In this document: piece by piece, positions 2,137-35,393 of the stretch | Position numbering within the stretch: position 1 is the first letter of the stretch | Layout of the letters: each line of letters opens with the position of its first letter | Source of the DNA: Thermoanaerobaculia bacterium | Lineage (GTDB): Bacteria > Acidobacteriota > Thermoanaerobaculia > Multivoradales > Multivoraceae | Direction of reading: 5' to 3' | NCBI GenBank assembly: GCA_035546295.1 | Contig: DATKBT010000052.1 | Coordinates: 36,032 to 100,031 of the forward strand | Length of the DNA: 64,000 bases | Program-made: the position numbers and the translations under genes | Notes under the pieces: generated by a model | What the model saw: only the letters and a program-made list of their open reading frames with translations | What the model was told of the DNA's origin: nothing | The model's database searches: none

Positions 2137-2166
2137 GACGATCGACAAGTCGAGCGGGCGAACCGA

Positions 2167-11118: not shown

Positions 11119-11166
11119 CGGATGCTCCTCTCGGGTCGAACGACCATTGTTCAGATGGATGCGAGC

Positions 11167-13019: not shown

Positions 13020-14326
13020 CAGCCGGAAGCCGGAACGGTGCCGCCGTCAGCGATCTGGGGAACCATTGCGTCGTGGATCGAGCGGATCGCCGGCAGCACC
13101 GTCGTCCGCTCGATCAGCAGCGTGTACGCATGGTCAACGGCGTGCTCGGCGTCGACCGTGATGCGGTGGCGATCGGTGACCTGGCGGGTGCGATTGCGAC
13201 GGCTCTCGCAGTCCCCGATGCCGAGACCGATGACCGAGACCGAGCCCAGGCCGTCGTCGACCTCGACCTCGCGGTCGAAGGCCCGCTCGAGATCGCAGGC
13301 CAGGTCTTGGCGCGCCGGCAGCTCGTCGGCGGGGAAGAAGAGGGTTCGGCAGCTGCCCGCTCGCAGCGCCGAGAAGGGGATCGACGAGACGCCGACCGCG
13401 GACTCCAGCTCGCGCGCCAGCCCATCGTCGGCGGCGGAGTCGCGCAAGCGCAGTCGCACGAGCTGCCGGTGTCCGGCGACGCCGGTCACTGCGCCCGCGC
13501 CGTTGCCGTCGCCATTCTCGATCGGCGGTCCGATGATCGTACCGGCGCCGGCTCCGAAGGCGGGACGTGCGTGGAGCTCGACCCGATGCGCGGCCGCATG
13601 CTCGACGGCGCGCCGGTCGAGCACCGAGGCACCGGAGTAGGAGAACGCGACCATCTCGTCGTAGGTCACTCGCTCGAGGAGCTGCGCGCCGTCGACGATG
13701 CGCGGATCGGCCGAGAACACCCCCTCGACGTCGGAGTAGATCTCGCAGCGGAGCGCGCCGAGCACCGCGGCGAGCGCCACGGCGCTGGTGTCGGAGCCGC
13801 CCCGCCCGAGCGTCGTGACGTCGCCATCGGGGGCCTCTCCCTGGTAGCCGGCGACCACCACGATCCGGCCGGAGGCCAGCTCGCGCAGCACCCGCGCCGG
13901 CTGCACACCCTCGATGCGCGCGCCGAAGTGGTTCTTGTCGGTGCGGATTCCGCTCTGGGGGCCGCTGAGGGAGACCGCGGCGCAAGCCAGCTCCTCGATC
14001 GCCATCGAGAGCAGGGCCATCGAGATCCGCTCGCCGGAAGAGACCAGCACGTCGAGCTCGCGCCGTGGAGGCGTCGTGTGCAGGGACCGCGCCATGCTCA
14101 GCAGCTCGTCGGTGGTGCTGCCCATCGCCGAGACCACGACGACGACGTCGAAGCCCTGGCTGCGAGTGGACACCACGCGCTCGGCGACCCGGCGCAGCTT
14201 GGCGATGTCGGCCAGCGAGGTGCCGCCGAACTTCTGCACCACGATCGGCGTGCTCGGCACGATCGGCGTGATCGGATGGGTCTGCGCGTTCGGCCGGACC
14301 CCCGGACATCCAGACGGAATGGTCAT
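13019..14326 (-). CDS. ask: Aspartate kinase (ectoine-cluster-associated Ask_ect type); start uncertain
   Basis: Hallmark [10 protein letters not shown], then the amino-acid kinase domain and two ACT-like regions. Stop overlaps the ectA start by 1 nt. Confidence 0.8.
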
Positions 14327-17719: not shown

Positions 17720-18544
17720 TCAGAACGTCACCCCGAATCGCTTGCGCAGGGCGAAGGCGAACACCACCGAGAGGACCAGCAGCACGATCGACCAGTGAGT
17801 GTGCCAGCCGAAGAGCCAGACCTCGGCCTCGCGATATCCGATCGCCATCTCCTCGATCGGAACGCCCTTCGGGATGGGATCCTCGGCTGGGAACAGGAGC
17901 TGGTTGAGCAGACCGCGCTCGAGCCGGTTCGGCGAGCGGCGGGTCAGCTGGTCGGAGACCACCAGGTTCTTGGTGGTGCGGACGCCGCCGAGGTCGAGCG
18001 CCAGCTCGTAGCTGCCCGGAGCCTCGCCGACCAGCTTCCAGGCGAGCTCGTGGCGGCTCGGCGCCCACACCGGCGGCGAGTCGATGCGCACGCCCGGCGG
18101 CGCCTCGAGCGCGACCTCGGGCCGGCCGGCCGGCGCCTCCGGCGACAGCCGCACCGACAGCACCGTCGACTCGCCGACCGCGAGCCCTTCGTAGCCGTAG
18201 TGGAACTGGAGCTGCGCGAAGAGCAGGAACATCGGCACCAGCATGACCAGCAGGGGCTTCAGGTTGAGCCCCATGTACCTCAGGTTCTGGCGCAGCAGGT
18301 TGCCCTGGGCCGCGAGGATCGTCCGCAGGTCGTCGTTGAACAGGCGGATCTCGAAGAAGGAGGCGGCCATCCTCGCCTTGACCGCCTCGATCGCGCGCTG
18401 GTCCGAGAAGCGCTTGTAGACGAGCAGCGCCAGGATTGCGAACGGCAGCGAGACCACCGCGACGGAGACGAACGACGGCAGCGACCGAAACGGCATCAGG
18501 CCCAGGTCGACGAGGCTGCGGAGGATGGAGTTGAGGAACGTCAT
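17720..18544 (-). CDS. Integral membrane protein of unknown function
   Basis: 274-aa ORF with 4-6 predicted TM helices; no recognisable catalytic motif. Confidence 0.5.
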   Translation of the reverse strand: MTFLNSILRSLVDLGLMPFRSLPSFVSVAVVSLPFAILALLVYKRFSDQRAIEAVKARMAASFFEIRLFNDDLRTILAAQGNLLRQNLRYMGLNLKPLLVMLVPMFLLFAQLQFHYGYEGLAVGESTVLSVRLSPEAPAGRPEVALEAPPGVRIDSPPVWAPSRHELAWKLVGEAPGSYELALDLGGVRTTKNLVVSDQLTRRSPNRLERGLLNQLLFPAEDPIPKGVPIEEMAIGYREAEVWLFGWHTHWSIVLLVLSVVFAFALRKRFGVTF

Positions 18545-18746
18545 GGGGTGAGAGGGGGGGAACGGAATCTCCCTGCGGCGCTCGGGGTCGCTCGGGCCGT
18601 GGCCCGGTGGTGGCCGCGTTCGCGTGAGGAATGCTGCGGTCGCCGTATCGGATCGTCGCGGCTGCTAAGAGAGGTCGGCCGCTACGGGCCGCGCGTGCTC
18701 GCGGTGGCTTCTGGTGCGACGAGGCCGCTCTGGAGCCGCGAGCTCG

Positions 18747-18941
18747 TCAGGAGATGTAGCCCAGGCCCTGAAGTCGCTTCTTGATCTCCTCCTCGGAGTC
18801 CGCGTCCTCGAGCTGCGCGAGCTCCTTCTCGAGCGCGTGGGTGATGAACTCCTCGGGGGATGAGTAGCCGGCGATGTCGGAGTAGCGCTTGACCTTGGCC
18901 AGCAGTTCGGGGTCGAGCTTGATCTTGCTGCTCTTGAACAT
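18747..18941 (-). CDS. Small ribbon-helix-helix (CopG/Arc-like) protein, 64 aa
   Basis: Beta-strand KIKLD followed by two helices (PELLAKVKRYSD / SPEEFITHALEKEL). Charged, K/E-rich, clean ORF. Confidence 0.45.
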   Translation of the reverse strand: MFKSSKIKLDPELLAKVKRYSDIAGYSSPEEFITHALEKELAQLEDADSEEEIKKRLQGLGYIS

Positions 18942-18989
18942 TGGGTGTCCTCTGCGGTGGGCGGAGTCGTGGATCGGAGGCCGTCCGGA

Positions 18990-21134
18990 TCACGCGGCCT
19001 GCTCCGAGGCCCTCTTCTCGAACAGGGAGCGCCCTTCCATGTGGGCGGGCGGTCGGATGCCGAACAACTCGAGCGCGGTCGGTGCGATGTCGATCAGCGA
19101 CGGCTCCACCGCTTCGATCGGCCGGCTGCAGAAGAACACGCCCGGTACCAGCCGCGGATCGATGCAGTGGTCGCCGCTCCAGGCCTTGACGTTGTCCTCG
19201 AACAGCGGCGCAGAGACCACGCCGGTCGCGCAGTCCCACGAGGTCCGGTAGCCCGGGGCGTAGCCGATGATCAGATCCGGCGCGCTGCCTAGGTACGGCC
19301 CCGAGTACACGTCCTCGCTGGCGAAGGCCTCGTTGACGCCGACCGCCCCCGCCTCGTCGTCGCGCAGCCCGTTGAGGCCGGCGATGATCTCGGCCTTGAG
19401 CCTCTTCGCTTCGGCGCCCGGCTTGACGATGCCGTTGGCCTCGCGCCCCTCCAGGTTCAAGAACATGCCGGACAGCCCGAGCGCGTAGGCACGGGTCTTC
19501 GACCAGTCGACGCCGGTGAGCCACTCCTCGCTGCCATCGCTGTCCTGCTTCAACACCAGATAGCCGTTGTCGAGCAGCCACCGGTTGAGGTTCACCCCGC
19601 GGCGGAAGGAATCGAAGCCGTGGTCCGAGAGAACCATCAGCAGGTCGCCGTCGCGAAGCTTCGCCATCACGCGCCCGACCAAAGCGTCGTTGTGCTGGTA
19701 GTGCTCGACGATCGCGTCCTTGTGCTCGGGATCGACGATCCCGCGGGCGGCCGGGTGCCCCTCTTCGAGGTAGCGCCAGAACATGTGCTGGATGCGGTCG
19801 GTGGCGTCGAAGACGCAGACCAGGGCGCCGCGCCGCAGCTTCTCCAGCGCGGCGAAGAACATGCTCTCGCGCTCCCGATCGATGTCGTACGTCTGCTTCA
19901 GGAACGTGGCGTCGTCGGTGATCCCCTCGTTGAGCGCCCAGGTGTCCTCGGCGAGTCCGAGGGTCGAGTAGGGGCCCACCTTCTTGGTCAGGTAGGTCGA
20001 GTAGTAGCCCGGGTGGGAGATCGGCATGGCGGGCTTCTCAGGGCTCAGGTTGATCGGCGACAGGTAGAGCGAGAAGTGCTCGCCGATCTCGGTCACCTGA
20101 AGACGGCACATGCCGTGGACCTTGATCCCGGGCAGCGCCGCGAAGACCAGCGTCACCCAGTCCGACAGCTCACCTTCGCGCAGGACGAGGTGTTCGGCGC
20201 CGAGGTCGAGCCGCGCGGTCTTCGCCCGGCGGTCGAGCTCGATCGTCACCGGCAGGCGAAGCGGCTCGCCCGACTCGAGGAAGGTGTTCTCGGGTCCCTG
20301 GATGGTGGTGACGAAGCGGTCGGCGCTCGGCTCGCCGTCGAGGACGACGCGCAGGCCCCCCTCCTTGAATTTCTCGCTCGAGCGCCGAGTCGTGAAGAGC
20401 AGGAAGGTGCCCTGGGTGCCGAGGAGATCCGGGACGCACATCGCGGCGAGCTGGGCGCCGTAGAAGCGGTCCGGCGGGAAGGTGATCGGCACGCGCAGGA
20501 CCGTGCTCCAGATGTTGTGCTCGCCCAGGATGGTCCAGAAGGGCTTGGACTTGCGCAGGAGCCGGAGCTCCGGCTTCTGAAGCGGGATTCGGAACCTGCC
20601 GACCTTGAGGAAGCGGTCGAGGCGCCCGATGTGAGTCGAGGAGAGCTTCGGCAGGTAAGTGCGCAGGTCGCGGTCGAGGAAGTCGAAGATGTTGTGCTTC
20701 GCGGGATTGGTGCCGGTGCTGAATGACGACCAGGCGACCGGAGAGAGCGCCGGGTAGGTGGTGAGGATGCGGGCGTAGGAGCCGGTCGTGGCCAGCTTCT
20801 GGAAGTTGGGCAGCTTGCCTTCGGCCATCAGGCGGTCGGTGATTCGGGGATCCTGGCCGTCGAGCCCCACGACCACGAGCCGCTGGATCGACGCCTTGGG
20901 CGTCTTGGCGCGCCGCATCGCGCGAATCAGGGTCCGAAACGGCCAGATCATCAGCGAGCCGAGCGCGATGACGATGGTGCTGAACAGCACCATGAAGGAC
21001 GACAGCAGCGCGAAGCCCGCCCCGGGTCCGATATAGGCCCCGGCGGGGGCTGCCAGGGAGGCGGCGACTCCGACGGCAGCCGCCACCGCGAGGGTGAAAG
21101 GAAGGCGGCGGCTGGTGCTGGCTGGCGGACGCAT
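18990..21134 (-). CDS. Membrane-anchored alkaline-phosphatase-superfamily enzyme (type I phosphodiesterase/nucleotide pyrophosphatase family)
   Basis: N-terminal TM helix, then VVVGLDGQD...TYPALSPVAWSSFSTGTNPAKHNIFDF and C-terminal LMVLSDHGF metal-ligand motifs. Confidence 0.75.
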   Translation of the reverse strand: MRPPASTSRRLPFTLAVAAAVGVAASLAAPAGAYIGPGAGFALLSSFMVLFSTIVIALGSLMIWPFRTLIRAMRRAKTPKASIQRLVVVGLDGQDPRITDRLMAEGKLPNFQKLATTGSYARILTTYPALSPVAWSSFSTGTNPAKHNIFDFLDRDLRTYLPKLSSTHIGRLDRFLKVGRFRIPLQKPELRLLRKSKPFWTILGEHNIWSTVLRVPITFPPDRFYGAQLAAMCVPDLLGTQGTFLLFTTRRSSEKFKEGGLRVVLDGEPSADRFVTTIQGPENTFLESGEPLRLPVTIELDRRAKTARLDLGAEHLVLREGELSDWVTLVFAALPGIKVHGMCRLQVTEIGEHFSLYLSPINLSPEKPAMPISHPGYYSTYLTKKVGPYSTLGLAEDTWALNEGITDDATFLKQTYDIDRERESMFFAALEKLRRGALVCVFDATDRIQHMFWRYLEEGHPAARGIVDPEHKDAIVEHYQHNDALVGRVMAKLRDGDLLMVLSDHGFDSFRRGVNLNRWLLDNGYLVLKQDSDGSEEWLTGVDWSKTRAYALGLSGMFLNLEGREANGIVKPGAEAKRLKAEIIAGLNGLRDDEAGAVGVNEAFASEDVYSGPYLGSAPDLIIGYAPGYRTSWDCATGVVSAPLFEDNVKAWSGDHCIDPRLVPGVFFCSRPIEAVEPSLIDIAPTALELFGIRPPAHMEGRSLFEKRASEQAA

Positions 21135-21585
21135 CGGCAGGGATCCTTCCGGCTTCGAGATGCTCCCGCTCGTCGAGAGCCGAGCTGGAGGGAGCGTTGG
21201 AGCGCGACGGTGCGAACCCGAGCGCGTTCCGGTGCTGGCCGTTCGGCCAGTTGCGGGATGGGCAGTGTACGGGGAGGGTGGAGGCCAGTTCAAGGCGGCC
21301 GCCCCGTCGGCGCCGGCCTCCGTTTCTCGACGGAAGGCCGTCTTGCTCGCGAGTCCACCCGTCGCTATCGTAGCGCGACTGTCCGCTTGCCGGTTGCGAT
21401 CGGCAGCGATCCGACCTGCGATCGTCGGCGCCGAGCGCGCAGCGCGCTGAAAGGCGGCCGCCGTCCCGCCTGAGTCGACGAGTCCAGCGGAAGCTCACAG
21501 AATGGTCAAGGTCCGATCAGGTCGCTCCAGATGAGCTGGAATCCAGGGTTGAGCCGAGTCGGCCCGAACCCGCCAGGTTGACTCG

Positions 21586-22206
21586 ATGCAAGGAATCTCC
21601 AAGCTCTGGCGGCGCTTGCGCTATGGCGAGCCGGTGGTCGTGATCTCGGGCCTGCCGCGCTCGGGCACGTCGATGGCCATGAAGATGCTCGAGGCCGGCG
21701 GCCTGCGGCTGGTCAGCGACGGCCAGCGCGAGGCCGACGTGGACAACCCGAAGGGCTACTACGAGGACGAGCGGGTCAAGGGTCTCGAGCGCTCGAGCGA
21801 CCGCGCCTGGGTCCGCGATGCGCGGGGCAAGGGGATCAAGGTCATCTCCCGCCTGCTGCGATCCCTGCCGGCCGAGAACTTCTACCAGGTGGTCCTGATG
21901 CGCCGCGACCTCACCGAGGTGCTGGCCTCGCAGGCCAAGATGCTCGAGCGACGCGGCGAGGACGGGGGTTCGGACGACGAGCGCATGCGCAAGGTCCTCG
22001 AGAAGGACCTCTGGCAGGCGACCTATCACCTGAAGCGGGCGCCCAACTTCGAGTGGCTCGAGCTCCAGTACACCGAGGTCCTGGCGGATCCCGAGGGGCA
22101 GGCCCGGCGGATGGCCGCCTTCCTCGACTGCGCGCTCGACGTCGAGAAGATGGCGACCGTGGTCGATCCGGACCTGTATCGCAACCGGGCCGTCGCCGAG
22201 GCCTAG
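21586..22206 (+). CDS. Sulfotransferase family protein
   Basis: 5-prime-PSB loop VVVISGLPRSGTSMAMKML and 3-prime-PB region RLLRSLP. 206 aa. Confidence 0.7.
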   Translation: MQGISKLWRRLRYGEPVVVISGLPRSGTSMAMKMLEAGGLRLVSDGQREADVDNPKGYYEDERVKGLERSSDRAWVRDARGKGIKVISRLLRSLPAENFYQVVLMRRDLTEVLASQAKMLERRGEDGGSDDERMRKVLEKDLWQATYHLKRAPNFEWLELQYTEVLADPEGQARRMAAFLDCALDVEKMATVVDPDLYRNRAVAEA

Positions 22207-22476
22207 CGGGCTCGTGGTGATCACCACTCCCCAAACGAGCCGCGAGATCGCAGCGCGGTCATACCACGACCCCGCTAGCCCATGTTCCCCGCCCAAGCGC
22301 CGCAAGCGGCGCGGGCTCAGGTCGACTAGGCCTGAAGCCGCTGATTCCAGATCGTTTGGGTGCGGCTTGATCGAACATTGACCGTTTGTGAGCCTTGGTC
22401 TCGCGCTTGCGCGAGGCCAATGACCGCCGCCTGCCGCAGGCAGGCAAGAACTTTCCGCTGGCCTAGTCGACCTAGG
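22202..22476 (-). repeat. Copy A of a structured intergenic repeat (minus orientation), with a 60-nt hairpin insertion
   Basis: Reverse complement aligns at ~85-90% identity to 56911..57131. Begins on the sulfotransferase stop codon and ends 8 nt before the next start. Confidence 0.6.
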
Positions 22477-22483
22477 AGGAGTC

Positions 22484-23554
22484 TTGGAAGGAGTCGCGGC
22501 CGAGGCGCGGGCCGCGATCGCGGCCGCGCCGGCGTTCCGGCCGCCGCCCTGGCTGCGGGGCGCGCACGGCCAGACGGTCTGGAGCCCGCTATTCCGGCCG
22601 CGTCGTCGGCTTGCGTTCGAGCTCGAGCGCCTGCCCACTCCCGACCGAGACTTCGTTCGCCTCCACCATCTTTCGGAACCCGCGCTCGCGGAACCCGTTC
22701 CCAGGCTTTCGGAACCCGTTCCAAAGCCGTGCAGGCGACGAGCCGCGGGATGGGAGCGGCCGCGCCTGGTGATCCTTCATGGACTCGAGGGCTCAGCGCG
22801 CTCGAACTACGTGGGAGGTCTGGCGGAAAAGGCGATCGCGCAGGGGATGTCGGTCACCGCGATGGAGTTCCGCTCCTGCGGCGGCGAGCTCAATCGTGCA
22901 CGCCGCCTGTACCACCTCGGCGAGACCGAGGACCTCGAGCACGTGCTCTCGGTGCTGGTCCGGCGCGAGCCGGGGCGCCCGATCCTCCTGGCCGGCGTCT
23001 CGCTCGGCGCCAACGTCATCGTCAAGTGGCTCGGCGAGCGGGGCGAGGTCGCGCCGCCGGAAATGGCGGGAGCCGCCGTCATCTCGGCGCCCTTCGACCT
23101 CACGGTCAGCGGCCCGGTGCTGGACCGCGTCCTGGGCGGGCTCTACACCCGGCGCTTCCTGCGCACACTGGTTCCCAAGGCGCTCGCCAAGGAGCGTCAG
23201 TTTCCAGGGTCGATCGACCTGGAGCGCGTAGCGCGAGCACGCACGTTCGTCGAGTTCGATACCCACGCCACCGCCCGCTTCCACGGATTTCGCGACGCCT
23301 GGGACTACTGGCGGCGGTGCAGCAGCGGGCCCTTCCTGGAGACGGTCCGGCGGCCGCTGTTGCTGATCTCGTCGGCGGACGACCCGTTCAACCCGACCGA
23401 GACCCTCCCGCGCGGCATCGCGCGACGCAACCCGTGGGTGCTCGAGAGCTTCACCGAGAGGGGCGGACACGTCGGCTTCGTCGAAGGGGCGCCGTGGCGA
23501 ACGCGGCACTGGGCGGAGGAGCGGGCGATACGATTCCTGTCGCTCCTGGCCTGA
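22484..23554 (+). CDS. Alpha/beta hydrolase (YheT/ABHD1-3-like)
   Basis: RPRLVILHGLEGSARSNYV, nucleophile elbow GVSLGAN, C-terminal DDPF. Carries an in-frame insertion of tandem TTCGGAACCCG-like repeats. Confidence 0.75.
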   Translation: MEGVAAEARAAIAAAPAFRPPPWLRGAHGQTVWSPLFRPRRRLAFELERLPTPDRDFVRLHHLSEPALAEPVPRLSEPVPKPCRRRAAGWERPRLVILHGLEGSARSNYVGGLAEKAIAQGMSVTAMEFRSCGGELNRARRLYHLGETEDLEHVLSVLVRREPGRPILLAGVSLGANVIVKWLGERGEVAPPEMAGAAVISAPFDLTVSGPVLDRVLGGLYTRRFLRTLVPKALAKERQFPGSIDLERVARARTFVEFDTHATARFHGFRDAWDYWRRCSSGPFLETVRRPLLLISSADDPFNPTETLPRGIARRNPWVLESFTERGGHVGFVEGAPWRTRHWAEERAIRFLSLLA

Positions 23555-23776
23555 TCCCGCTCCTCGCTGCCTGGGTGCCCTCGCGGGATCGGCGGTCGTC
23601 GAGAGCGCGCCGCAGCGATCTCAGGAGCGCCGTCTTCCCCGCCGTCGGTCGCGACCACAACCGCCGGCAAGGGCGTCCCGAAAGCCCGGTCGGCGCCTCT
23701 GATAGCTTCGCGGTCCTTCTCCCTCGGGCGACCGAGGACCGACTCGACGCTTCCCCGGAATCCCGGAGACCGACTG

Positions 23777-24880
23777 ATGACCACCGCCGAGAACCTCCTC
23801 GAGGGCAAGGTGGCGGACGCCCGCGCTCGGCTCGACGAGCACGTGCGCGAGATCGTGGCCTGGCACTTCGACCCGAGCACCGGCACGCCTTTCTGGCTGG
23901 AGTACGCCGACCGGCTCGACTTCGATCCCTGCGCCGACGTCCGATCCTTCGACGACCTCAAACGCTTCCCGCCCTTCCAGGACGAGTGGCTGCGCGGCGG
24001 TCCGGTGCGGCGCTGGGTGCCGAAGGCGTTCGCCGACCGGCCGATCTACGTGTTCGAGACCGGCGGCACCACCGGCATCCCGAAGAGCCGCATCGCGATC
24101 GAGGACTTCCGGATCGACTACGAGATGTTCAGCGAGACGCTCCCCGAGCAGTACTTCCCGAAGGGCGGCAACTGGCTGATGCTGGGGCCGTCGGGTCCGC
24201 GGCGGCTGCGCCTCGCCGTCGAGCACCTGTGCCAGCACCGCGGCGGGATCTGCTTTTGCGTCGACCTCGATCCGCGCTGGGTCATCAAGCTGATCCAAAA
24301 GGGCTGGACCGAGCACCTCGAGGCCTACAAGCGCCACGTGGTCGACCAGGCGATCACCATCCTCTCTGCGGGACACGACATCAAGGCGATGTTCGCGACA
24401 CCGAAGCTGCTCGAGGCGCTGTGCTTCGCGCTCGAGGAGCAGGGCAGGACGCTGGCCGGGTGCGGGGTCCTCGGGATCTTCTCGGGGGGCACCGAGTTCA
24501 CGCCGCAGTGGACGCGTTTCGCGGTCGAGGAGCTGCTCGACGGCGTCTACATGACACCGACCTACGGCAACACGCTGATGGGTCTCGCCGCCTCCAAGCG
24601 GGTGAGCGCGGAGGAGGGGTATAAGATCAGCTACTACGCGCCGCAGCCGCGCGCCGTGCTCGAGGTGGTCGATCCAGAGGATCCCGACCGTCTCGTCGGC
24701 TACGGCGAGACCGGCCGGGTCCGGCTCACCACTCTGACCAGAGAGCTCTTCGTCCCCGGTTTCCTCGAGCGCGACGAGGGCGAGCGCGAGCCCCCCTACG
24801 AGACCTATCCCTGGGACGGCATCAGCGGCGTTCGCCCCTTCCACCAGCTCGCGGCGACGACGACGGTCGGCGTCTACTGA
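23777..24880 (+). CDS. LuxE-like acyl-protein synthetase (adenylate-forming enzyme)
   Basis: 367 aa; phosphate-binding loop YVFETGGTTGIPKS; size and layout of the LuxE family. Confidence 0.6.
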   Translation: MTTAENLLEGKVADARARLDEHVREIVAWHFDPSTGTPFWLEYADRLDFDPCADVRSFDDLKRFPPFQDEWLRGGPVRRWVPKAFADRPIYVFETGGTTGIPKSRIAIEDFRIDYEMFSETLPEQYFPKGGNWLMLGPSGPRRLRLAVEHLCQHRGGICFCVDLDPRWVIKLIQKGWTEHLEAYKRHVVDQAITILSAGHDIKAMFATPKLLEALCFALEEQGRTLAGCGVLGIFSGGTEFTPQWTRFAVEELLDGVYMTPTYGNTLMGLAASKRVSAEEGYKISYYAPQPRAVLEVVDPEDPDRLVGYGETGRVRLTTLTRELFVPGFLERDEGEREPPYETYPWDGISGVRPFHQLAATTTVGVY

Positions 24881-25009
24881 GGAAGGTGTGGTGGCTGCCA
24901 CACCTTCCTCGGTTGGTGTTCTCCTCGCTCCATGGACTCCGGCGCGTCGCCGGGGAACCGCCGGCGAGCCGTACCGCACGTTCTGACAGGTTCCACGCCA
25001 GGAGCATCG

Positions 25010-26443
25010 ATGATGCGCATTCCCGTACTTCGTTGGGGCAAGCCGTACGAATCGCTCGAGACCGACACGGTCGTCCACTTCGAGACCGGCGAGGAGCTCG
25101 CGGTGGTCGATCAGGCCAACCCGGGCCTCATCCAGCGCGACCTGCGAAGGATCTCTCTCGCGCGCGAAGCTTTGCGCGCGATCCCGAGCCGGGAGCTGAT
25201 CGGGATGGTCAGAGCGGCCGCCGATCTCTACATGTCGGCCGAGCTGCCGATGGGCGACGGCGTGCAACGTCCCGAGGACTTCGTTCGCATCCAGTCGGCG
25301 ACCACCGGCCTGCCGGAGCACATGTGCCGCGCCAACATGGAGAAGAACCACTTCGTGCTCACCCGCATGGACGAGGTGCTCGATGCGCTGACCCGCGGCC
25401 TCGACCTCGGGATCCTGGGGCGCGGCTACGGCGTCGAGGAGCGCGGCGTGCCGGTGAGCTACCAGGCGCAGGCCGCCGCGCTCGGCCTGGTGCTCCCCTC
25501 GAACTCGCCGGGGGTGCACACTCTGTGGATGCCGGTCATTCCGCTACAGGTCGGACTGGTGTTCAAGCCGGGTCCGCAGGAGCCATGGACCCCCTACCGG
25601 ATGACCGAGGCGTTCTACGCGGCGGGCGTGCCACGCGAGGCGATCTCGATCTATCCGGGGGGCGCCGAGGCGGGAGCCGCGGTGCTCGCCGCCAGCCCGA
25701 GGGCGCTGATCTTCGGCGGCAAGGAGACCGTCGACCGCTATCGCGGGAACCCCCGGGTCCAGCCGCACGGGCCGGGCTTCTCGAAGATCCTGCTCGGCGA
25801 CGACTGCGTCGACGAGTGGGAGCACTGGCTCGACGTGATGGTGTCGAGCGTCGCCGTCAACAGCGGCCGCTCGTGCATCAGCTGCTCGGGGATCTGGGCC
25901 TCCCGTCATACCCGCGAGATCGCCGAGGCGGTCGCCGAGCGCCTGGCCCCCATCGCGCCGAAGCCGATGACCGATCCCGACAGCCCACTGGCCGCGTTTA
26001 CGGTCCCCGGAGTGGCCAGGACGATCTCGGGCATGATCGACCGTCAGCTCGAGGCGCCCGGGGTCGAGGACGTCACCCAGCGGCTGCGCGGCGGGGAGTC
26101 GCGGCTGGTCGAGCGGGAGCGCTGCGATTTCCTGCGGCCGACGGTCGTGCACAGTGTGTCCCCCGAGCCCGAGATCGCCAACGTCGAGTACATGTTCCCG
26201 TTCGTCTCGGTCGTCGAGTGCCCGCAGGATCGCATGATCGACTCGATCGGCGATACCTTGGTGTGCAGCGCGATCACCTCCGATCCCGGCTTTCGCGCGC
26301 GGCTGATCGACGCGACGAACGTCGATCGGCTCAACCTGGGACCGGTGCCGACGATCCAGCTCAACTGGCTGCAGCCCCACGAAGGGAACATCATCGATTT
26401 CCTGTTCCGCGCCCGAGCCTTCCAGGAGAGCCCGATCGCATAG
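25010..26443 (+). CDS. LuxC-like acyl-CoA reductase (aldehyde dehydrogenase superfamily)
   Basis: 478 aa from the internal ATG of ORF 24932..26443. ALDH-like fold with SGRSCISCSGIW catalytic-Cys region. Immediately follows the LuxE-like gene. Confidence 0.65.
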   Translation: MMRIPVLRWGKPYESLETDTVVHFETGEELAVVDQANPGLIQRDLRRISLAREALRAIPSRELIGMVRAAADLYMSAELPMGDGVQRPEDFVRIQSATTGLPEHMCRANMEKNHFVLTRMDEVLDALTRGLDLGILGRGYGVEERGVPVSYQAQAAALGLVLPSNSPGVHTLWMPVIPLQVGLVFKPGPQEPWTPYRMTEAFYAAGVPREAISIYPGGAEAGAAVLAASPRALIFGGKETVDRYRGNPRVQPHGPGFSKILLGDDCVDEWEHWLDVMVSSVAVNSGRSCISCSGIWASRHTREIAEAVAERLAPIAPKPMTDPDSPLAAFTVPGVARTISGMIDRQLEAPGVEDVTQRLRGGESRLVERERCDFLRPTVVHSVSPEPEIANVEYMFPFVSVVECPQDRMIDSIGDTLVCSAITSDPGFRARLIDATNVDRLNLGPVPTIQLNWLQPHEGNIIDFLFRARAFQESPIA

Positions 26444-26605
26444 CCTCGAATGTGCTGGTCACCAACCATCCAGAGGCCAGCGATTGCTTCACGGTCCTGT
26501 CGGGAAGTCTCGCGGTCGACGTGAACGCGGAGTCGGCGGATGCCAGGATCGCGGCCGGCGAGGCGGTCGTGCGGTTTTGGCGTCCGTATGCTATCGTCTC
26601 ATACC

Positions 26606-27691
26606 ATGAGGGGCATCCTGCTGCTCGGCGCGATCGCCGGGTTGGCGCTCTCGGCCGTTTCGCCGGCGGAGGCGCAACGGGGCCGGTGGTCCCGGCTCGA
26701 GATCCCTGATCTCGGCTCGACGGTGGATGTCTACCTGCCACGTGGCGCGGGGCTCGAGGCGAGCGCCGCGGCCGGCGAGGGAGCCAGCGCGGTCGTCTTC
26801 CTGCACTCCTCGGGCCGCGCCCCCGAAACGTATCGCAGCACGCTCGGCGAGGCGGCCGAGAGCCTGGGTGTGGTGCTCTTGCTGCCTCGGTCGACCACGC
26901 CGTTCGGATGGGGCTTCGAGGACGACTTCGCGCTGGTCGAGTCGAGCGTCGCGCGAGTGGGCTCCATCGTTTCGCTCGATCGCGCGAAGATCGCGATCGC
27001 CGGGCACGGCGACGGCGCCGGCTACGCCTACCTGTTGGCCTACTTCAGCGACTTGGAGCTGAGCGCGGTGCTGACGCTGGGAGCGCCGTTCCTCCAGATC
27101 TCGGAGCTGTTCGAGCCCGAGAGCCCGCCTCCCATCCGCATGATCTACGGCGCCGAGGATCCCTTCTACCGCAGCGAGGGAGGGCATCTGCGCGAGCAGT
27201 GGAGCAGCCTCGGGATCGAGTGGCAGCTCGACGTCCTCCCCGGCTTCGGGCATTCGACCTGGCCGCAGGAGGCGATCCTCACGGGCTTCAGGTTTCTGGC
27301 CGAGCGCAGCGGGCGCTCACCGAGTGGACGCTGCTCGACCGGCCGGACTGCGCTCTGCCTCGCCGAAGGCCGCTTTCGCGCCGAGGTCACCTTCGCCGAC
27401 GTCGAGGGGCGTCCCGGCCGAGGCAGGGTGATCAACGGCGACACGCCCGACTCCGGGATCTTCTGGTTCTTCGACAGCGACAACTGGGAGGTCATGGTCA
27501 AGGTCCTGGACGGATGCGCCATCAACGATCGCTTCTGGGTCTTCGCGGCGGCCTCGACCGATGTCGACTATCGCCTGACGGTGACCGACCAGGTCACCGG
27601 TCGGGTCGTGCAGTATCGGCACGAGCCGGGAGCGCCGGCGCGAGCGGTCACCGACGTCGAGGCCTTCCCGGGTTGCCGGAAGGCCTCGTGA
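26606..27691 (+). CDS. Secreted alpha/beta-hydrolase esterase with C-terminal extra domain
   Basis: Signal peptide MRGILLLGAIAGLALSAVSPAEA, VVFLHSSG oxyanion region, IAIAGHGDGAGYA nucleophile-elbow-like. Confidence 0.6.
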   Translation: MRGILLLGAIAGLALSAVSPAEAQRGRWSRLEIPDLGSTVDVYLPRGAGLEASAAAGEGASAVVFLHSSGRAPETYRSTLGEAAESLGVVLLLPRSTTPFGWGFEDDFALVESSVARVGSIVSLDRAKIAIAGHGDGAGYAYLLAYFSDLELSAVLTLGAPFLQISELFEPESPPPIRMIYGAEDPFYRSEGGHLREQWSSLGIEWQLDVLPGFGHSTWPQEAILTGFRFLAERSGRSPSGRCSTGRTALCLAEGRFRAEVTFADVEGRPGRGRVINGDTPDSGIFWFFDSDNWEVMVKVLDGCAINDRFWVFAAASTDVDYRLTVTDQVTGRVVQYRHEPGAPARAVTDVEAFPGCRKAS

Positions 27692-27816
27692 GCGGCGTCC
27701 GGGGCCCGGCCCCTTGCGCGCGGCCTGCGGCCGCGCACGCGTCTGCCGTCGCGGACGCTGGAGGTGCGGCGTCGTCCCGGCCGAGGGACTCGACGTCGTT
27801 CACCCCATAGAATCCG

Positions 27817-28686
27817 GTGGTGGTCTCCACCGACTCCGACACCGGCGCGCCCGGCGGGAACCACCGCCCCTTCGAGCTGCGCGAGCTCGACAGCCGCTCC
27901 GACTACGAGCAGTGTCTGGAGCTCCAGCAGGCGACCTGGGGGCGCGATTTCCGCGAGCTCGTGCCGCCCACGATCCTGGCGATCACGCAGAAGGTCGGCG
28001 GGGTGCTGGCGGGCGCGCTCACTCCGGACGGCGAGCTCCTGGGCTTCGTCTACGGTCTCACGGGGGTGCGCAAGGGGGAGCTGGCGCATTGGTCGCACAT
28101 GCTCGCAGTGCGCGACCAGGCGCGCGGCCTGGGCCTCGGCAAGCAGCTCAAGATGTTGCAGCGGCAGCGCCTGGTCGAGCTCGGCTGCGAGGTCATGTAC
28201 TGGACCTTCGACCCCCTCGTCGCCCGCAATGCCAACCTCAACCTCGGCCGGCTCGGCGCTCTGCCGTCCGAGTACGTGGTGGACATGTACGGCACGCAGA
28301 CCGGGAGCGATCTCCACTCCGGGCTGGGCACCGACCGGTTCGTGGTGGAGTGGCGGTTCGCGGATCCCGACGTCGCGAGACGCCTCGAAACGGGAATCCG
28401 CTGGACGTCGCCGGCCCCCGCGGAGGGGGCGGTCGTGATCGGGCCCGGCGAGGATGCCGAAGCGCAGGTCGCCGGGCTCGATCGTGACCGACCGCCGGCC
28501 TTCTGGATCAGCGTCCCGCCGGACGTCGATCGGCTGAAGCGCGAGAATCGCGAGGAAGGCCTCAGGTGGCGCGACGCGATGCGCTACGCGATGGTGTGGG
28601 CCTTCGGCCACGGCTACCGGGTCGCGGGACTCGCCGGCGACCTGCGCGCCGAGTCGGGGGTGTGGTACCACCTCGAGCGCGCGTGA
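27817..28686 (+). CDS. GNAT-family acyltransferase, ~289 aa
   Basis: Acyl-CoA binding-like region QARGLGLGKQLKMLQRQRLVELGCEVMYWTFDP. Confidence 0.5.
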   Translation: MVVSTDSDTGAPGGNHRPFELRELDSRSDYEQCLELQQATWGRDFRELVPPTILAITQKVGGVLAGALTPDGELLGFVYGLTGVRKGELAHWSHMLAVRDQARGLGLGKQLKMLQRQRLVELGCEVMYWTFDPLVARNANLNLGRLGALPSEYVVDMYGTQTGSDLHSGLGTDRFVVEWRFADPDVARRLETGIRWTSPAPAEGAVVIGPGEDAEAQVAGLDRDRPPAFWISVPPDVDRLKRENREEGLRWRDAMRYAMVWAFGHGYRVAGLAGDLRAESGVWYHLERA

Positions 28687-29082: not shown

Positions 29083-30867
29083 CTAGCTCTGCTGGATCTT
29101 TTCGAAGGCGGCAGCCAGCGCACCGAGGCCGCTCTTCGAGGTGTGCTTCTTCTGGTATTCGCGAAGGTCGGACTTGGTGCCCTCGAGCTTCGAGCCGACC
29201 GGCGCCAGCGAGATCCGGCGGCGCTTGGTGTCGATCGCGTCGATCACCACCTCGACCGCATCGCCGGGGCGGAACTGCCGGGTCGGCCGCGGCCCCTGGA
29301 CCTCGGGCAGCGAGGAGAAGGGGAGGAGGCCGGTGAGGCCGGGCTCGATCTCCACGAAGACCCCGAAACGAGCCACCTGCTCGACCCGGCCGGTGACCAC
29401 GTGGCCCTCGGTGTAACGGGACTTGATGTCCGACCAGGGATTCGTCTGGGCGACCTCGCGCAGCGACAGGGAGAGCCGGCGCCGCTCGGGATCGACCTCG
29501 CGAACCCAACCCCCGATCATCTGCCCCTCGGCGTAGTCGGGGGAGTCCATGCTCTTTCCCAGCTCGAGGTTGGAGGAGTGGACCAGGCCCTCGAGCCCGT
29601 CGCCGACGTCGACGAAGAGACCGAAGTCGGCCTTGCGCAGGATCGTGCCCTCGAACTTCGATCCGGTGTCGAACTTCTGGGTGACCGTGTGCCACGGATC
29701 GGGCTCGAGCGCCTTCATCGAGAGCGAGATGCGATCGCCGCCCTTCTCGATCTTGAGCACCTTCACCTGCACGTCCTGACCGACCTGGACCACCTCCCGC
29801 GCGTTCTCGACTCGCCGGCGGCTGAGCTGGGAGAGGTGGACCAGCCCCTCGAGGCCTCCGCCGACGTCGACGAACGCGCCGAAGTCGGTGATCGACGTGA
29901 CCTTGCCCTCGATCGCGTCGCCCGAGGCCTTCTTCTGCCGGAGCTGCTCGATCGCCGCCTCCCGGTCCTCGATCAGCACCCGACGCCGGGTCAGCACGAC
30001 CCGCTTCCCGTGGTCCTTGATCTCCAAGACCCGGAACTTGAACGTGCGGTCGACGTAGGCGGCGGCGCGCTTCGGGTTGTCGATCTCGATCTGGGACTTC
30101 GGACAGAACGCCGGAACACCGTTGATGACGACGTGGAAGCCCCCCTTGTTCCAGCCGATCACCCTGCCCTCGAGCCGCTGGCCGCTCTCGTGCGCGTTCA
30201 GGACAGCCTCGAGCTGCGGGCTCGCGGGCGCCAGGGCGCCCTCCTCCTCGCCGTCCGCCGAGGGCGCGCCAGCCTCGACCGGCGGTTCCTTCTCGGCAGC
30301 GGTTTGGATGCTGGCGTTGGGAGCCTCGGCGGCGGCCTCCCCGCGATCCGAGTCTCCAGGCGACGCCGCGCTCGCGTCGGTCTCCGGCGTGCTCGCGACC
30401 GCGGTTTCGCCCCGTTTGCCGGCGCCGGCCTCCTCTGCGCTCGCGCTCTCCGCTTCTTCGCCCGGGGCGGCTTCGACCGTGCTCGCCGCAGTGGTCTCGG
30501 CCCGTTCGCCGGCATCGGGCTTCTGCTCTGCGCCTCCCTCTGCACCGTTGTCTGCAGCTTCGGCGTCCGCCGCTTCCGCGGCTTCGGAGACCGCCGCGAC
30601 TTCCGGCTCCTGCGGGGCGGGCTCGGCACTCTCGTCGGCGTCCGGGCCCGTCGTGCGATCGCCGTCGGTGTCGCCGATCGCCATCGTCGATGCCTTCTCG
30701 GAGCTCTCCTCGTCGCCCTGCTCGGCGGCCGGCGGCTCGGAGCTCGCGTCCGCGGTCTGCTGGACCCCGTCCTCCGCCGCGTTCACCTCCGCTGCAGCGC
30801 CGCTCTCGTCCTCGGCGGACGAAGCGAGGTTGGCAGCCGCTTCCGTTGCGGCTTCAGGCTTGGACAT
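29083..30867 (-). CDS. S1 RNA-binding domain protein (four S1 domains, RpsA-like) with ~230-aa acidic low-complexity N-terminus
   Basis: Four repeats of the G-x-V...GL.HxS S1 pattern. N-terminal A/E/S/G-rich disordered region. Confidence 0.75.
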   Translation of the reverse strand: MSKPEAATEAAANLASSAEDESGAAAEVNAAEDGVQQTADASSEPPAAEQGDEESSEKASTMAIGDTDGDRTTGPDADESAEPAPQEPEVAAVSEAAEAADAEAADNGAEGGAEQKPDAGERAETTAASTVEAAPGEEAESASAEEAGAGKRGETAVASTPETDASAASPGDSDRGEAAAEAPNASIQTAAEKEPPVEAGAPSADGEEEGALAPASPQLEAVLNAHESGQRLEGRVIGWNKGGFHVVINGVPAFCPKSQIEIDNPKRAAAYVDRTFKFRVLEIKDHGKRVVLTRRRVLIEDREAAIEQLRQKKASGDAIEGKVTSITDFGAFVDVGGGLEGLVHLSQLSRRRVENAREVVQVGQDVQVKVLKIEKGGDRISLSMKALEPDPWHTVTQKFDTGSKFEGTILRKADFGLFVDVGDGLEGLVHSSNLELGKSMDSPDYAEGQMIGGWVREVDPERRRLSLSLREVAQTNPWSDIKSRYTEGHVVTGRVEQVARFGVFVEIEPGLTGLLPFSSLPEVQGPRPTRQFRPGDAVEVVIDAIDTKRRRISLAPVGSKLEGTKSDLREYQKKHTSKSGLGALAAAFEKIQQS

Positions 30868-32678: not shown

Positions 32679-33007
32679 CGGAGGCCGTCCCGGCGCTCGG
32701 GAGGTCGTCGATCGAGCCGGTGACGGAGCGACCGGAGGAGCTCGGAGGACGTGCGGAGCCAGGCGCCGCGCAGCATCGGCGGATCGTACCAGCCCGCCGG
32801 CAGCGGTCCGCCGGCTGCGGCGCGCACGGCCTCGGGCCCGCAGACCGCTGTAGTAAGCTTCGCGGCCCGTTCGCGCCTCGAGCGGCTCGGTCTCCGCCCG
32901 GGCGGGGTCTCCTCCCCTCAGCCTTGGGCAGCAGCGCACGACCGGCCGTTCGCCACTCGTTTTCGCCCTTTCTTGCCGCTTCAGGGAGGGGCCGAGGATC
33001 CCGCGCC

Positions 33008-33838
33008 ATGTCCATCCAGCGCTTCAGCGGAACCGACACCTACCTGGTCACCCCCGAGCTGCGCGACGCCGTCAACGTCGCGATCGCGCTCGAAAAGCCG
33101 CTCCTGATCCGAGGCGAGCCGGGAACCGGCAAGACTGTCCTGGCGGAGGCGATCGCCGAGAACCTGGTGATGGAGCTCCTGACCTGGCACATCAAGTCGA
33201 CGACGACAGCCCAGGAGGGGCTCTACGTCTACGACACGGTTCAGCGGCTCAACGACGCCCGCTTCGGCGACAAGGACATCGGCGACATCCGCCAGTACAT
33301 CAGATACGGCCCCCTCGGCCGCTCCTTCACCAGCGACCAGCGCGTGGTGCTGCTCATCGACGAGATCGACAAGGCGGACATGGAGTTCCCGAACGACCTC
33401 CTCCACGAGCTCGACCGGATGAGCTTCGCGGTCAGCGAGACCGGCGAGCGGTTCACGGCCGTGCAGCGTCCGATCGTGGTCATCACGTCCAACAACGAGA
33501 AGGAGCTCCCCGACGCGTTCCTTCGCCGCTGCGTCTTCCACTACATCGCGTTCCCCGACAAGGCGACGATGGCCGACATCGTCCGCGTCCATCACCCCGA
33601 CGTCGAGGACGAGCTGCTCCACCAGGTGATGCTGCGCTTCTACTGGCTGCGTGACCTTCCCGACATCAGGAAGCGCCCGTCGACCAGCGAGCTGATCGAC
33701 TGGATCGCGGCGCTGCGTCGAGGCGGCATCTCGACCGAGCGCATCGAGCAGGAGCTCCCCTTCCTGGGCGTGCTCATGAAGCGCGAGAGCGACCTCGAGG
33801 CGGCCACCGCCGCCCATCGCAGGGGCAGGATCAACTGA
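33008..33838 (+). CDS. MoxR-family AAA+ ATPase
   Basis: Walker A GEPGTGKT, Walker B VLLIDEIDKA, sensor region ITSNNEKELPDAFLRR. Confidence 0.8.
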   Translation: MSIQRFSGTDTYLVTPELRDAVNVAIALEKPLLIRGEPGTGKTVLAEAIAENLVMELLTWHIKSTTTAQEGLYVYDTVQRLNDARFGDKDIGDIRQYIRYGPLGRSFTSDQRVVLLIDEIDKADMEFPNDLLHELDRMSFAVSETGERFTAVQRPIVVITSNNEKELPDAFLRRCVFHYIAFPDKATMADIVRVHHPDVEDELLHQVMLRFYWLRDLPDIRKRPSTSELIDWIAALRRGGISTERIEQELPFLGVLMKRESDLEAATAAHRRGRIN

Positions 33839-34021
33839 CGCCGGCGGCGTCCCGTAGGGGCCCGCCTCGGTGTTGGCCGATCCCCCGCACGATCCCGCAC
33901 GGGGGCGCCCGTCACTCCGCCCGTCCGGATCGGCCGGCCTTCCGGTCGGCCGATCGCTCCGACCACTCCGAGACGGCAGGCGACCGACGAACGAGGAGGG
34001 CCTAACGGCTATAGTCCCGCC

Positions 34022-35212
34022 ATGTTCGCCGACTTCTTCTACCACCTGCGGGGCTACGGTCTGAAGGTGACGATCACCGAGTGGCTGACCCTGATGCGGG
34101 CGCTGGCCGGCGGGCATTCGCGCGCCGATCTGTCGGTGTTCTACCACCTGGCCCGGGCCCTGCTCGTCAAGCGGGAGTCGGACTACGACACCTACGACCG
34201 GGCCTTTTCGTCGTTCTTTCTCGGCCTCGAGGACCACTTCGGCGTCGACGAGGCCCTGCTCGAGTGGCTGTCGAACCCGATCCTCCCCGAGATCAGCGAC
34301 GAGGACCGGGCGAAGCTCGAGGAGCTGTCGCTCGAGGAGCTGCGCCAGCGGTTCCTCGAGCGCCTCGCCGAGCAGGACGAGCGTCACGACGGCGGCAACA
34401 AGTGGATCGGCACCGGCGGGACGTCGCCGTTCGGCCATGGCGGCGAGCATCCGACCGGCATCCGCGTCGGCGGCGGGGGCGGAGGGCGCAGCGCGGTGCA
34501 GGTCGCAGGCTCACGGCAGTTCCGCAACCTGCGCAACGACCGGATCCTCGACACCCGGTCGATCGGAGTCGCGCTGCGGCGCCTCAAAAGGCTGCAGAAG
34601 GACGACGGCCCCGAGGAGCTCGACCTCGACCGGACGATCGATCAGAGCGCCCGCAACGGCGGCGAGATCGAGTTGGTGTTCACGCCGCCGAGGCGCAACC
34701 GCATCAAGCTCCTGCTGTTGATGGACGTCGGCGGCTCGATGGATCCACACACGCTGCTCTGCGAGCGGCTGTTCAGCGCCGCCCACGCCGCCAATCACTT
34801 CAAGAAGTTCGAGCACCGCTTCTTCCACAACTGCGTCTACGAGCGCCTCTACACCGACATCGCACGCTGGCGGGGGGAGCCGACCTCGCAGGTGCTCAAG
34901 AACCTCGACCACACCTGGTCGGTGGTGTTCGTCGGCGACGCCTGGATGAGCCCGTACGAGCTCACCCACTCCGGCGGAGCCATCGACTACGGGTACAGGA
35001 ACAACGACACCGGTCTCACCTGGCTGCGCCGGATCCGCGAGCGCTGCCCCAGCTCGGTCTGGCTCAACCCCGAGCCCAGGAAGATCTGGAACGCCCCGAC
35101 GATCCACCTGATCCGCCAGCTCTTCCCGATGTACCCGCTCACCATCGACGGCCTCACCGAGGCGATCGACGTGCTGCGCGGCATCCGGCCGAACCGGGCC
35201 CTGGCGGCGTAG
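34022..35212 (+). CDS. VWA domain protein (CoxE-like partner of MoxR ATPase)
   Basis: MIDAS motif LLLLMDVGGSMD; position immediately downstream of MoxR. Confidence 0.75.
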   Translation: MFADFFYHLRGYGLKVTITEWLTLMRALAGGHSRADLSVFYHLARALLVKRESDYDTYDRAFSSFFLGLEDHFGVDEALLEWLSNPILPEISDEDRAKLEELSLEELRQRFLERLAEQDERHDGGNKWIGTGGTSPFGHGGEHPTGIRVGGGGGGRSAVQVAGSRQFRNLRNDRILDTRSIGVALRRLKRLQKDDGPEELDLDRTIDQSARNGGEIELVFTPPRRNRIKLLLLMDVGGSMDPHTLLCERLFSAAHAANHFKKFEHRFFHNCVYERLYTDIARWRGEPTSQVLKNLDHTWSVVFVGDAWMSPYELTHSGGAIDYGYRNNDTGLTWLRRIRERCPSSVWLNPEPRKIWNAPTIHLIRQLFPMYPLTIDGLTEAIDVLRGIRPNRALAA

Positions 35213-35393
35213 CGCAGGCTGAGAGCGCGCTGTGCCGGCTCGAAGGCGGGCCGCGCCGGAAACAATCCGCTTCCCGGCCTCGTTCTCCCGGGTGGGAGAC
35301 ACCGACCGACGGTGCAGAGAGGATACGAGAGGATGCGGAGAGGATGATGCAAAGGATCCTGCGGATCCCGACAGCAACCGACGGGGGAGGAAG

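Follow-up and report, generated by a model that had tools for sequence, protein, structure and literature searches.

Probable two-subunit carboxylate reductase of the EhpF/EhpG type at a locus of a Thermoanaerobaculia bacterium, with a separate sulfotransferase module as its neighbour

This analysis concerns two neighbouring genes on a 64,000-nucleotide stretch of DNA from a Thermoanaerobaculia bacterium (assembly GCA_035546295.1, contig DATKBT010000052.1, positions 36,032 to 100,031), the whole of which is referred to here as the window. The genes encode an adenylating protein of the ANL superfamily (23777-24880) and a reductase of the aldehyde dehydrogenase (ALDH) superfamily (25010-26443). 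A preliminary description of the window had taken them for a LuxE-like and LuxC-like pair which, together with adjacent sulfotransferase, hydrolase, GNAT and phosphodiesterase genes, would form a candidate pathway for the modification of a lipid or secondary metabolite. Genes were picked by the G+C content at third codon positions (GC3) in the window, which has a G+C content of about 70%. The region contains nine genes, three on the minus strand (17720-21293) and six on the plus strand (21586-28686). All the genes named in the preliminary description are real and are found where it places them, with GC3 values of 0.84-0.94 and orthologues in relatives that are 47-97% identical. Lengths are given below in amino acids (aa), and loci and proteins used for comparison are referred to by numbers with the prefix L and P, respectively.

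17720-18544, minus strand: membrane protein, 274 aa, last gene of the module of sulfotransferase and alkaline-phosphatase-superfamily (AlkP) protein, without family
18747-18941, minus strand: small protein, 64 aa, possibly ribbon-helix-helix, part of the sulfotransferase/AlkP module
18990-21293, minus strand: membrane-anchored AlkP-superfamily (type I phosphodiesterase) protein, 767 aa (PF01663, 96 bits)
21586-22206, plus strand: small sulfotransferase of the 3'-phosphoadenosine-5'-phosphosulfate (PAPS) type, 206 aa (PF13469, 45.6 bits)
22484-23554, plus strand: YheT/ABHD-like alpha/beta hydrolase, 356 aa (NF008218, 220.7 bits; PF12146, PF00561)
23777-24880, plus strand: ANL-superfamily adenylating subunit, probably of the EhpF/GriC type, 367 aa (EhpF homology)
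25010-26443, plus strand: ALDH-superfamily reductase subunit, probably of the EhpG type, 477 aa (PF00171, 60 bits; EhpG, 100 bits)
26540-27691, plus strand: secreted alpha/beta-hydrolase-like protein, 383 aa (sub-threshold matches to Abhydrolase_2 and polyhydroxyalkanoate depolymerase)
27817-28686, plus strand: GNAT-like protein, 289 aa (PF00583, 21.9 bits)

The ANL subunit is related to EhpF. A phmmer search of the PDB sequences returned EhpF (PDB 3L2K/3HGU) with an E-value of 7e-43, residues 21-356 being aligned to residues 22-354, and a profile built from 30 sequences of the ANL family found it with an E-value of 2.4e-48. An E. coli plasmid with an ehp-type phenazine cluster (L086) supplied EhpF and EhpG homologues for further comparison, and the EhpF homologue of this cluster shows 35% identity to the ANL subunit (E 7e-60). 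Homologues from Streptomyces with 34-36% identity carry the RefSeq name ‘arylcarboxylate reductase’. The P-loop ETGGTTGIPK, which had already been noticed in the preliminary description, is present at residues 94-103 and is invariant across the family save for one variable residue at position 101; it is accompanied by the motif TYGNT at residue 262 and the hinge ERD at residues 331-333. The protein ends 34 residues past this hinge and therefore lacks the C-terminal domain of the ANL superfamily. The ANL subunit and 120 family members all end exactly in G-[VL]-Y-COOH, the tail in the window being GVY (24869-24877), and the same ending is found in the EhpF homologue of the ehp cluster, in the Streptomyces ‘arylcarboxylate reductase’ and in a haloarchaeal homologue (L085-L087). 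By analogy with the C-terminal loop of LuxE, this G-V-Y tail may dock into the ALDH subunit. In a library of representative sequences, more distant ANL proteins of the EhpF type are fused to a class-III aminotransferase (824 aa, P0338) or to a Zn-dependent alcohol dehydrogenase (725 aa, P0361); both fusion partners consume aldehydes, which supports an aldehyde as the product of the ANL family.

The ALDH subunit resembles EhpG more closely than it does any solved ALDH. It scored 100 bits against the EhpG of the ehp-type cluster (E 3e-27, 23% identity) and 112 bits against the ALDH that adjoins the haloarchaeal ANL homologue, and in the PDB sequence search the best solved ALDH reached 45 bits. 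The translation start lies most likely at 25010 rather than at 24932, which gives a protein of 477 aa identical to P0121. In comparison with classical ALDHs, the oxyanion residue Asn166 (PSNSPG) and the catalytic Cys290 (NSGRSC) are kept, whereas the sequence PHGPGFS stands where classical ALDHs have LEAGGKS, so that the position of the general-base Glu is occupied by His254 within an invariant H-G-P-G-F-S-K motif. Cys290, Asn166 and the GPG segment are invariant in 119 homologues, EhpG and the haloarchaeal protein, while at the general-base position, where the ALDHs of the window type have His, EhpG has Gln and the haloarchaeal partner Tyr. Loss of this Glu is the pattern described for ALDHs that keep the thioester instead of hydrolysing it (review PMC12041015). 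An AlphaFold2 model of the ALDH subunit (predicted local distance difference test, pLDDT, 84) shows a generic ALDH fold with a TM-score of 0.73, and a Foldseek search of the PDB with this model gave only generic ALDHs among the top 50 matches.

The two genes belong to a large and strongly conserved group. More than 8000 homologues of the ANL subunit were found at E<=1e-10, the top 120 of which are all 75-90% identical and are mostly annotated as ‘hypothetical’ or ‘PaaK-like’; taken as a whole, the superfamily is of small size, with 1530 clusters (E<=1e-3) or 294 (E<=1e-30) after clustering at 50% identity, and fragments are numerous among these. In species-representative genomes, 595 loci were detected, and the neighbourhoods were counted in the best 80 of these, which come from Thermoanaerobaculia, Holophagae, ‘Ca. 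Multivorans’, Vicinamibacterales and many Planctomycetota, with one Sumerlaeota and one metagenome-assembled genome of the Gammaproteobacteria. In 68 of the 80 loci, an ALDH orthologue with 55-76% identity is encoded no more than 10 kb from the ANL gene, and most of the others are truncated contigs; the co-occurrence of the pair in relatives, proposed as a check of the preliminary description, is confirmed by these counts. In Thermoanaerobaculia of the ‘Ca. Multivorans’ type, an inversion has given the ANL gene the opposite orientation to the ALDH gene, and the two lie about 1-7 kb apart within the same neighbourhood (L004, L018, L023, L025, L026, L029, L031, L040, L043, L050, L051, L058). A neighbour-joining tree of the ANL proteins groups them by taxon, with a long branch to EhpF and the Streptomyces and haloarchaeal homologues. 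Because the tree follows taxonomy, it suggests an old, mostly vertical and strongly constrained inheritance rather than a recent transfer.

Taken together, the two genes likely encode a two-subunit, ATP- and NAD(P)H-dependent carboxylate reductase of the EhpF/EhpG (GriC/GriD-like) type. This assignment is grounded in the sequence homologies, the truncated ANL subunit, the pattern of the active site, the nearly obligate adjacency of the genes and the very strong conservation described above, from which we infer the direction of the reaction and a direct acyl transfer without CoA or a carrier. In the proposed mechanism, the ANL subunit, which consists of the N-terminal adenylation domain only, would convert the acid to an acyl-adenylate, Cys290 of the ALDH subunit would take over the acyl group in a thioester bond, and a hydride from NAD(P)H would release the aldehyde. 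As His takes the place of the general-base Glu found in oxidising ALDHs, the thioester would escape hydrolysis. An adenylating protein and an ALDH-superfamily reductase which together convert an acid to an aldehyde via an acyl-enzyme intermediate, as had been proposed in the preliminary description, is thus most plausibly what the sequences represent. Several points weigh against this assignment. The identity to EhpF is only 35% and that to EhpG only 23%, and the link to GriC/GriD is an indirect one, through their description and RefSeq names. With a pLDDT of 62, caused by a shallow alignment of low diversity, the model of the ANL subunit is too poor for a view of the pocket. The inverted ANL gene of the Multivorans type, 1-7 kb from the ALDH gene, means that co-transcription is not universal. 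Finally, the conservation is unusually strong for the roles in secondary metabolism known from this family, so that the true chemistry could differ, for example as a non-reductive acyl transfer.

Among known reductases, EhpF (structures 3L2K, 3HGU and 3HGV) and EhpG of Pantoea agglomerans Eh1087 are the nearest characterised relatives; they belong to a phenazine cluster for D-alanylgriseoluteic acid, in the biosynthesis of which they serve to modify phenazine-1,6-dicarboxylate. EhpF is likewise an ANL protein of about 360 aa without the C-terminal domain, can be aligned end to end and has the same G-V-Y C-terminus, and EhpG is encoded directly downstream as the ALDH partner, with the catalytic Cys and GPG kept and the general-base Glu lost. 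However, there are no phenazine genes near the pair in the window, the Glu is replaced by His instead of the Gln of EhpG, and EhpF/EhpG are sporadic secondary-metabolite genes, whereas the group described here occurs in hundreds of genomes of Acidobacteriota and Planctomycetota with 70-90% identity. For grixazone biosynthesis in Streptomyces griseus, it is reported in summary that the AMP-binding GriC and GriD reduce 3-amino-4-hydroxybenzoate (3,4-AHBA) to the aldehyde via an acyl-AMP (Suzuki, Ohnishi and Horinouchi 2007, cited in PMC10179220). Compared by this summary description, the similarity lies in two separate proteins, one AMP-binding and one ALDH-like, and in the formation of an acyl-AMP followed by reduction; the substrate 3,4-AHBA is made by griI/griH, which have no counterpart in the window. 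Carboxylic acid reductases (CAR) of type I catalyse the same net reaction, from acid, ATP and NADPH to aldehyde, but as a single polypeptide of adenylation, thiolation and reduction domains (A-T-R fusion) with a phosphopantetheinyl carrier domain and a reductase of the short-chain dehydrogenase/reductase type. Neither PP-binding nor NAD_binding_4 matched the ANL or the ALDH subunit in the window, which are two separate proteins.

The genes beside the pair differ between lineages. In Planctomycetota, the conserved array consists of a 124-aa protein, in some cases an alpha/beta hydrolase, the ANL and ALDH subunits, an iron-containing alcohol dehydrogenase (Fe-ADH), a BamB-like beta-propeller protein and a HemN-like radical-SAM protein (L081, 8487-16644, and about 30 other loci), the last of which scores under the cutoffs of the HemN, HemW, HutW and STM4012 models. 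The Fe-ADH gene lies directly downstream of the pair in 31 loci of Planctomycetota, and the alpha/beta hydrolase upstream of the ANL gene, found in 13 of their loci, is unrelated to that of the window. A glycosyltransferase of family 4 (GT4) or a squalene-hopene cyclase occurs occasionally in this phylum; a link to hopanoids was rejected as a general association, as the cyclase lies beside the pair in only three loci. In Vicinamibacteria and related Acidobacteriota, a GT4 gene overlaps the start of the ANL gene by 4 bp (L082), an ABC/FtsX pair follows the ALDH gene in nine of the ten loci of the Vicinamibacterales type, and the inserts between the ANL and ALDH genes of Vicinamibacterales encode DUF4399 proteins, which gave no further information. 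Other Thermoanaerobaculia have genes for phosphoenolpyruvate carboxylase, a GNAT orthologue and an MR_MLE protein after the pair. We propose that the Fe-ADH in Planctomycetota and the GT4 and ABC exporter in Vicinamibacterales are the aldehyde-using or product-handling genes of the respective lineages; the Fe-ADH, as a partner that uses aldehydes, counts in favour of the carboxylate reductase. Orthologues of the YheT-like hydrolase lie upstream of the ANL gene only in a subset of Thermoanaerobaculia and Holophagae (L001, L084, L088), and it is uncertain whether this hydrolase belongs to the functional unit of the pair. Its YheT-type label itself was supported by the match to NF008218, which stays under the cutoff of 267 bits, and by a nucleophile elbow GVSLG.

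The variation in neighbours speaks for a first alternative, according to which two or three unrelated conserved modules (sulfotransferase/AlkP, ANL/ALDH and GNAT) came to be adjacent by chance in one lineage, with no biosynthetic locus beyond the pair. The comparison of neighbours was complemented by a decisive reciprocal test that started from the sulfotransferase and covered 28 metagenome contigs of at least 6 kb. The AlkP gene adjoins the sulfotransferase gene in 22 of the 28 contigs, 19 of which also contain the small protein and the membrane protein, while the ANL/ALDH pair was found in one (L108) of about 20 sulfotransferase contigs with at least 4 kb of downstream sequence. The sulfotransferase module therefore forms a conserved unit of its own, and a single pathway made up of the pair together with sulfotransferase, hydrolases, GNAT and AlkP is not supported. 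Chance adjacency is also favoured by the annotation of the roughly thirty window genes, among which there are no polyketide synthase (PKS), nonribosomal peptide synthetase (NRPS) or terpene genes. Against it, both modules have kept a distance of no more than about 1-5 kb in 16 loci of Thermoanaerobaculia and Holophagae despite inversions and insertions, and selection for proximity is possible. We regard chance adjacency as somewhat likely; it is compatible with the assignment of the pair as a carboxylate reductase and is largely incorporated in it. The pair is accordingly treated here as the functional unit, and the hydrolases and the GNAT as lineage-specific neighbours of uncertain relevance.

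The sulfotransferase module (17720-22206), which comprises four to five genes, is widespread in metagenomes (L097-L169), with the sulfotransferase gene divergent from one or two AlkP/Phosphodiest genes, the RHH-like 64-aa protein and the 274-aa membrane protein. Beside the pair it is confined to Thermoanaerobaculia, Holophagae and Multivorans, and many of these have the ANL gene inverted in place. The labels of sulfotransferase and AlkP-superfamily phosphodiesterase given earlier were borne out by the Pfam scores listed above, as was that of the ALDH superfamily, and the AlkP gene is duplicated in many relatives (second copy AlkPb). The 64-aa protein is 64-97% identical in relatives and always lies between the AlkP and the transmembrane protein; its earlier classification as a ribbon-helix-helix protein could not be confirmed, the only match being a weak, Rv0623-like one (E 0.045). 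The membrane protein, which follows the small protein in 11 genome loci as well, has no Pfam or NCBIfam match. PDB sequence searches gave nothing significant for the sulfotransferase, the GNAT or the protein previously called a secreted esterase. For the latter, a signal-peptide-like N-terminus agrees with secretion, but the esterase part of the name was not confirmed, as the alpha/beta-hydrolase matches are sub-threshold. Its elbow reads GHGDG in the window, GHGEG in L084 and GHSAG in L089, and with no Ser in its elbow the window protein is perhaps not a serine hydrolase at all. The C-terminal approximately 120 residues of this protein are present in multiple copies in L019, and outside the window the gene lies downstream of the pair only in L084, which makes for a weak neighbourhood link. 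The GNAT label is carried by a Pfam score barely over the cutoff, and the orthologue in L088, a GNAT-like protein of 278 aa, shows 51% identity. Wherever the orthologue occurs in relatives (L004, L018, L088 and others), the next gene is an MR_MLE/DUF8230 gene of the enolase superfamily, which is absent from the window. A MenB-like enoyl-CoA hydratase gene is often found beside the GNAT orthologue, and an FkbO/Hyg5-like gene in L088 and L089; none of these is present in the window.

A second alternative keeps the Lux interpretation. In this case, the upstream alpha/beta hydrolase would free a fatty acid, the ANL subunit would activate it and the ALDH subunit would reduce it to a fatty aldehyde as in LuxCDE, and the sulfotransferase, GNAT and hydrolases would then make a sulfated or N-acylated lipid. 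An association with lipids is known for the YheT/ABHD family, and an alpha/beta hydrolase ahead of the pair, here and, as an unrelated protein, in the 13 planctomycete loci, recalls LuxD. The region 21586-28686 contains no terminator-like site, in a promoter and terminator scan that performed at chance level. The superfamilies are the same, and the sizes of the synthetase (~370 aa) and the reductase (~480 aa) are near those of LuxE and LuxC (PMC12041015). The sequence of steps predicted for the window pair, from acyl-AMP via an enzyme thioester to reduction with NADPH, would also be shared, and the ALDH subunit agrees with LuxC in having the catalytic Cys but no longer the general-base Glu; this reductive pattern is, however, common to several reductive ALDH families and not specific to LuxC.

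Below the superfamily level, membership in the LuxE and LuxC families fails on all tested features. The check with hidden Markov models (HMM) proposed in the preliminary description was run and speaks against it: PF04443 (LuxE) gave no match at E<=10 with either start-codon version of the ANL subunit, the sole match being a sub-threshold one to AMP-binding (21.7 bits), and PF05893 (LuxC) gave no match to the ALDH subunit at E<=10, which matched PF00171 instead. LuxC and LuxE have been solved as a complex (7XC6), in which LuxE takes the acyl group from the acyl-AMP onto Cys364 in a C-terminal loop that delivers it to Cys296 of LuxC (review PMC12041015). This LuxE, which the searched PDB sequences should contain, was not retrieved by the ANL sequence (phmmer, E<=1) or by the family profile (E<=10), although the same searches return EhpF and 4-chlorobenzoate ligase. 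Nor was LuxC among the top 60 of 161 profile matches of the ALDH subunit or the top 50 Foldseek matches, where ordinary ALDHs come first. The acyl-carrying Cys of the C-terminal loop is missing: the ANL subunit has no Cys beyond residue 229, and the last 60 residues are free of Cys in 115 of 120 homologues. Further differences from LuxE/LuxC are the triad Asn, which is kept in the ALDH subunit, the absence of luxAB and luxD genes, and the nearest characterised relatives, which act on aryl acids. Moreover, the putative downstream enzymes have other associations, the sulfotransferase with AlkP and the GNAT with the MR_MLE gene, and the ‘esterase’ is without Ser. A Lux-type fatty acid reductase is therefore considered improbable.

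Least probable of all, with hardly any likelihood, is a catabolic oxidative pair, in which the ALDH would oxidise an aldehyde to the acid and a PaaK-like ANL would make a CoA thioester for degradation: it is suggested by the JGI names of homologues (‘PaaK-like adenylate-forming protein’ and ‘acyl-CoA reductase-like NAD-dependent aldehyde dehydrogenase’) and by the best NCBIfam match of the ALDH subunit, a CoA-acylating methylmalonate-semialdehyde dehydrogenase (MMSDH) far under the cutoff, but the ANL subunit lacks the C-terminal domain that ANL ligases need for the thioester-forming half-reaction, the ALDH subunit lacks the general-base Glu for thioester hydrolysis, no PaaK, F390 or CoA-ligase model matched the ANL subunit with more than 25 bits (F390-synthetase and DVU_1553 models, with cutoffs of 459 and 300), and the characterised relatives are reductive as far as the cited accounts describe them.

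For the carboxylate reductase, several classes of substrate come into question. A phenazine can be dismissed, as the roughly thirty annotated window genes include no phz genes. The homology points to aryl acids, which we name as a tentative first choice, the next two classes being only slightly less probable. A lipid is a doubtful second candidate, suggested by the upstream alpha/beta hydrolases that recall LuxD and thus fatty acids; of the earlier claim that a fatty acid is converted to a fatty aldehyde, the acid-to-aldehyde step is most plausible, whereas a fatty-acid substrate is possible but not indicated. A small polar acid appears rather unlikely; it is suggested by the planctomycete Fe-ADH, which resembles enzymes of the FucO/ErcA type that typically act on small polar aldehydes. 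Any other class has little to recommend it. Two leads towards a hydroxybenzoate were considered and set aside. One was a chorismate-lyase-like protein of 191 aa beside GT4 in Planctomycetota (L081, 18974-19549), which has a best PDB match of E 0.28 and no Pfam match and occurs in three loci only. The other was the FkbO/Hyg5-like gene, which was seen only in L088 and L089, at a distance of 6-10 kb from the pair and on the opposite strand.

Elsewhere in the window, a complete ectoine operon is encoded on the minus strand (10693-13046), comprising ectA (GNAT, 12441-13046), ectB (class-III aminotransferase, 11167-12606) and ectC (Ectoine_synth, 198 bits, 10693-11166). A homologue of ribosomal protein S1 (29083-30867, minus strand) begins with about 215 extra residues ahead of the S1 repeats, an N-terminal extension that is acidic and rich in Ala and Glu. 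A trio of AAA ATPase, VWA (CoxE-like) and DUF3014 genes (32720-36242, plus strand) is syntenic in L084. The window also encodes a MacB/FtsX-type permease of 1059 aa (2106-5285, plus strand), a Ser/Thr kinase with TPR repeats (38735-41185, minus strand) and a two-domain protein of the phospholipase D (PLD) family (58756-60168, minus strand), which from its domain pair we presume may be a cardiolipin synthase.

The results correct the Lux label and divide what appeared to be a pathway of eight genes into independent modules. They also draw attention to an orthologue group that is very large, hardly varies and has gone essentially unannotated; its ANL subunit is mostly named ‘hypothetical protein’, and no description of the group was found in the literature. 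It extends a type of two-component carboxylate reductase that was previously studied in just two antibiotic pathways, and reductases of two proteins without a carrier are of interest as biocatalysts. The identity of 70-90% in two phyla implies that an acid-to-aldehyde step is important to these organisms, which abound in soil and sediment and are hard to grow. In a broader interpretation, to which we give a modest chance, the pair would be an ancient, vertically inherited and near-housekeeping carboxylate reductase of Acidobacteriota and Planctomycetota that makes an aldehyde or alcohol for a conserved constituent, such as an envelope lipid, an alkyl chain or a small-molecule cofactor, which would be finished by lineage-specific partners (Fe-ADH, GT4, the ABC exporter and perhaps the sulfotransferase module in Thermoanaerobaculia). 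If this is true, an enzyme type so far known from antibiotic and pigment pathways would have a role in primary metabolism.

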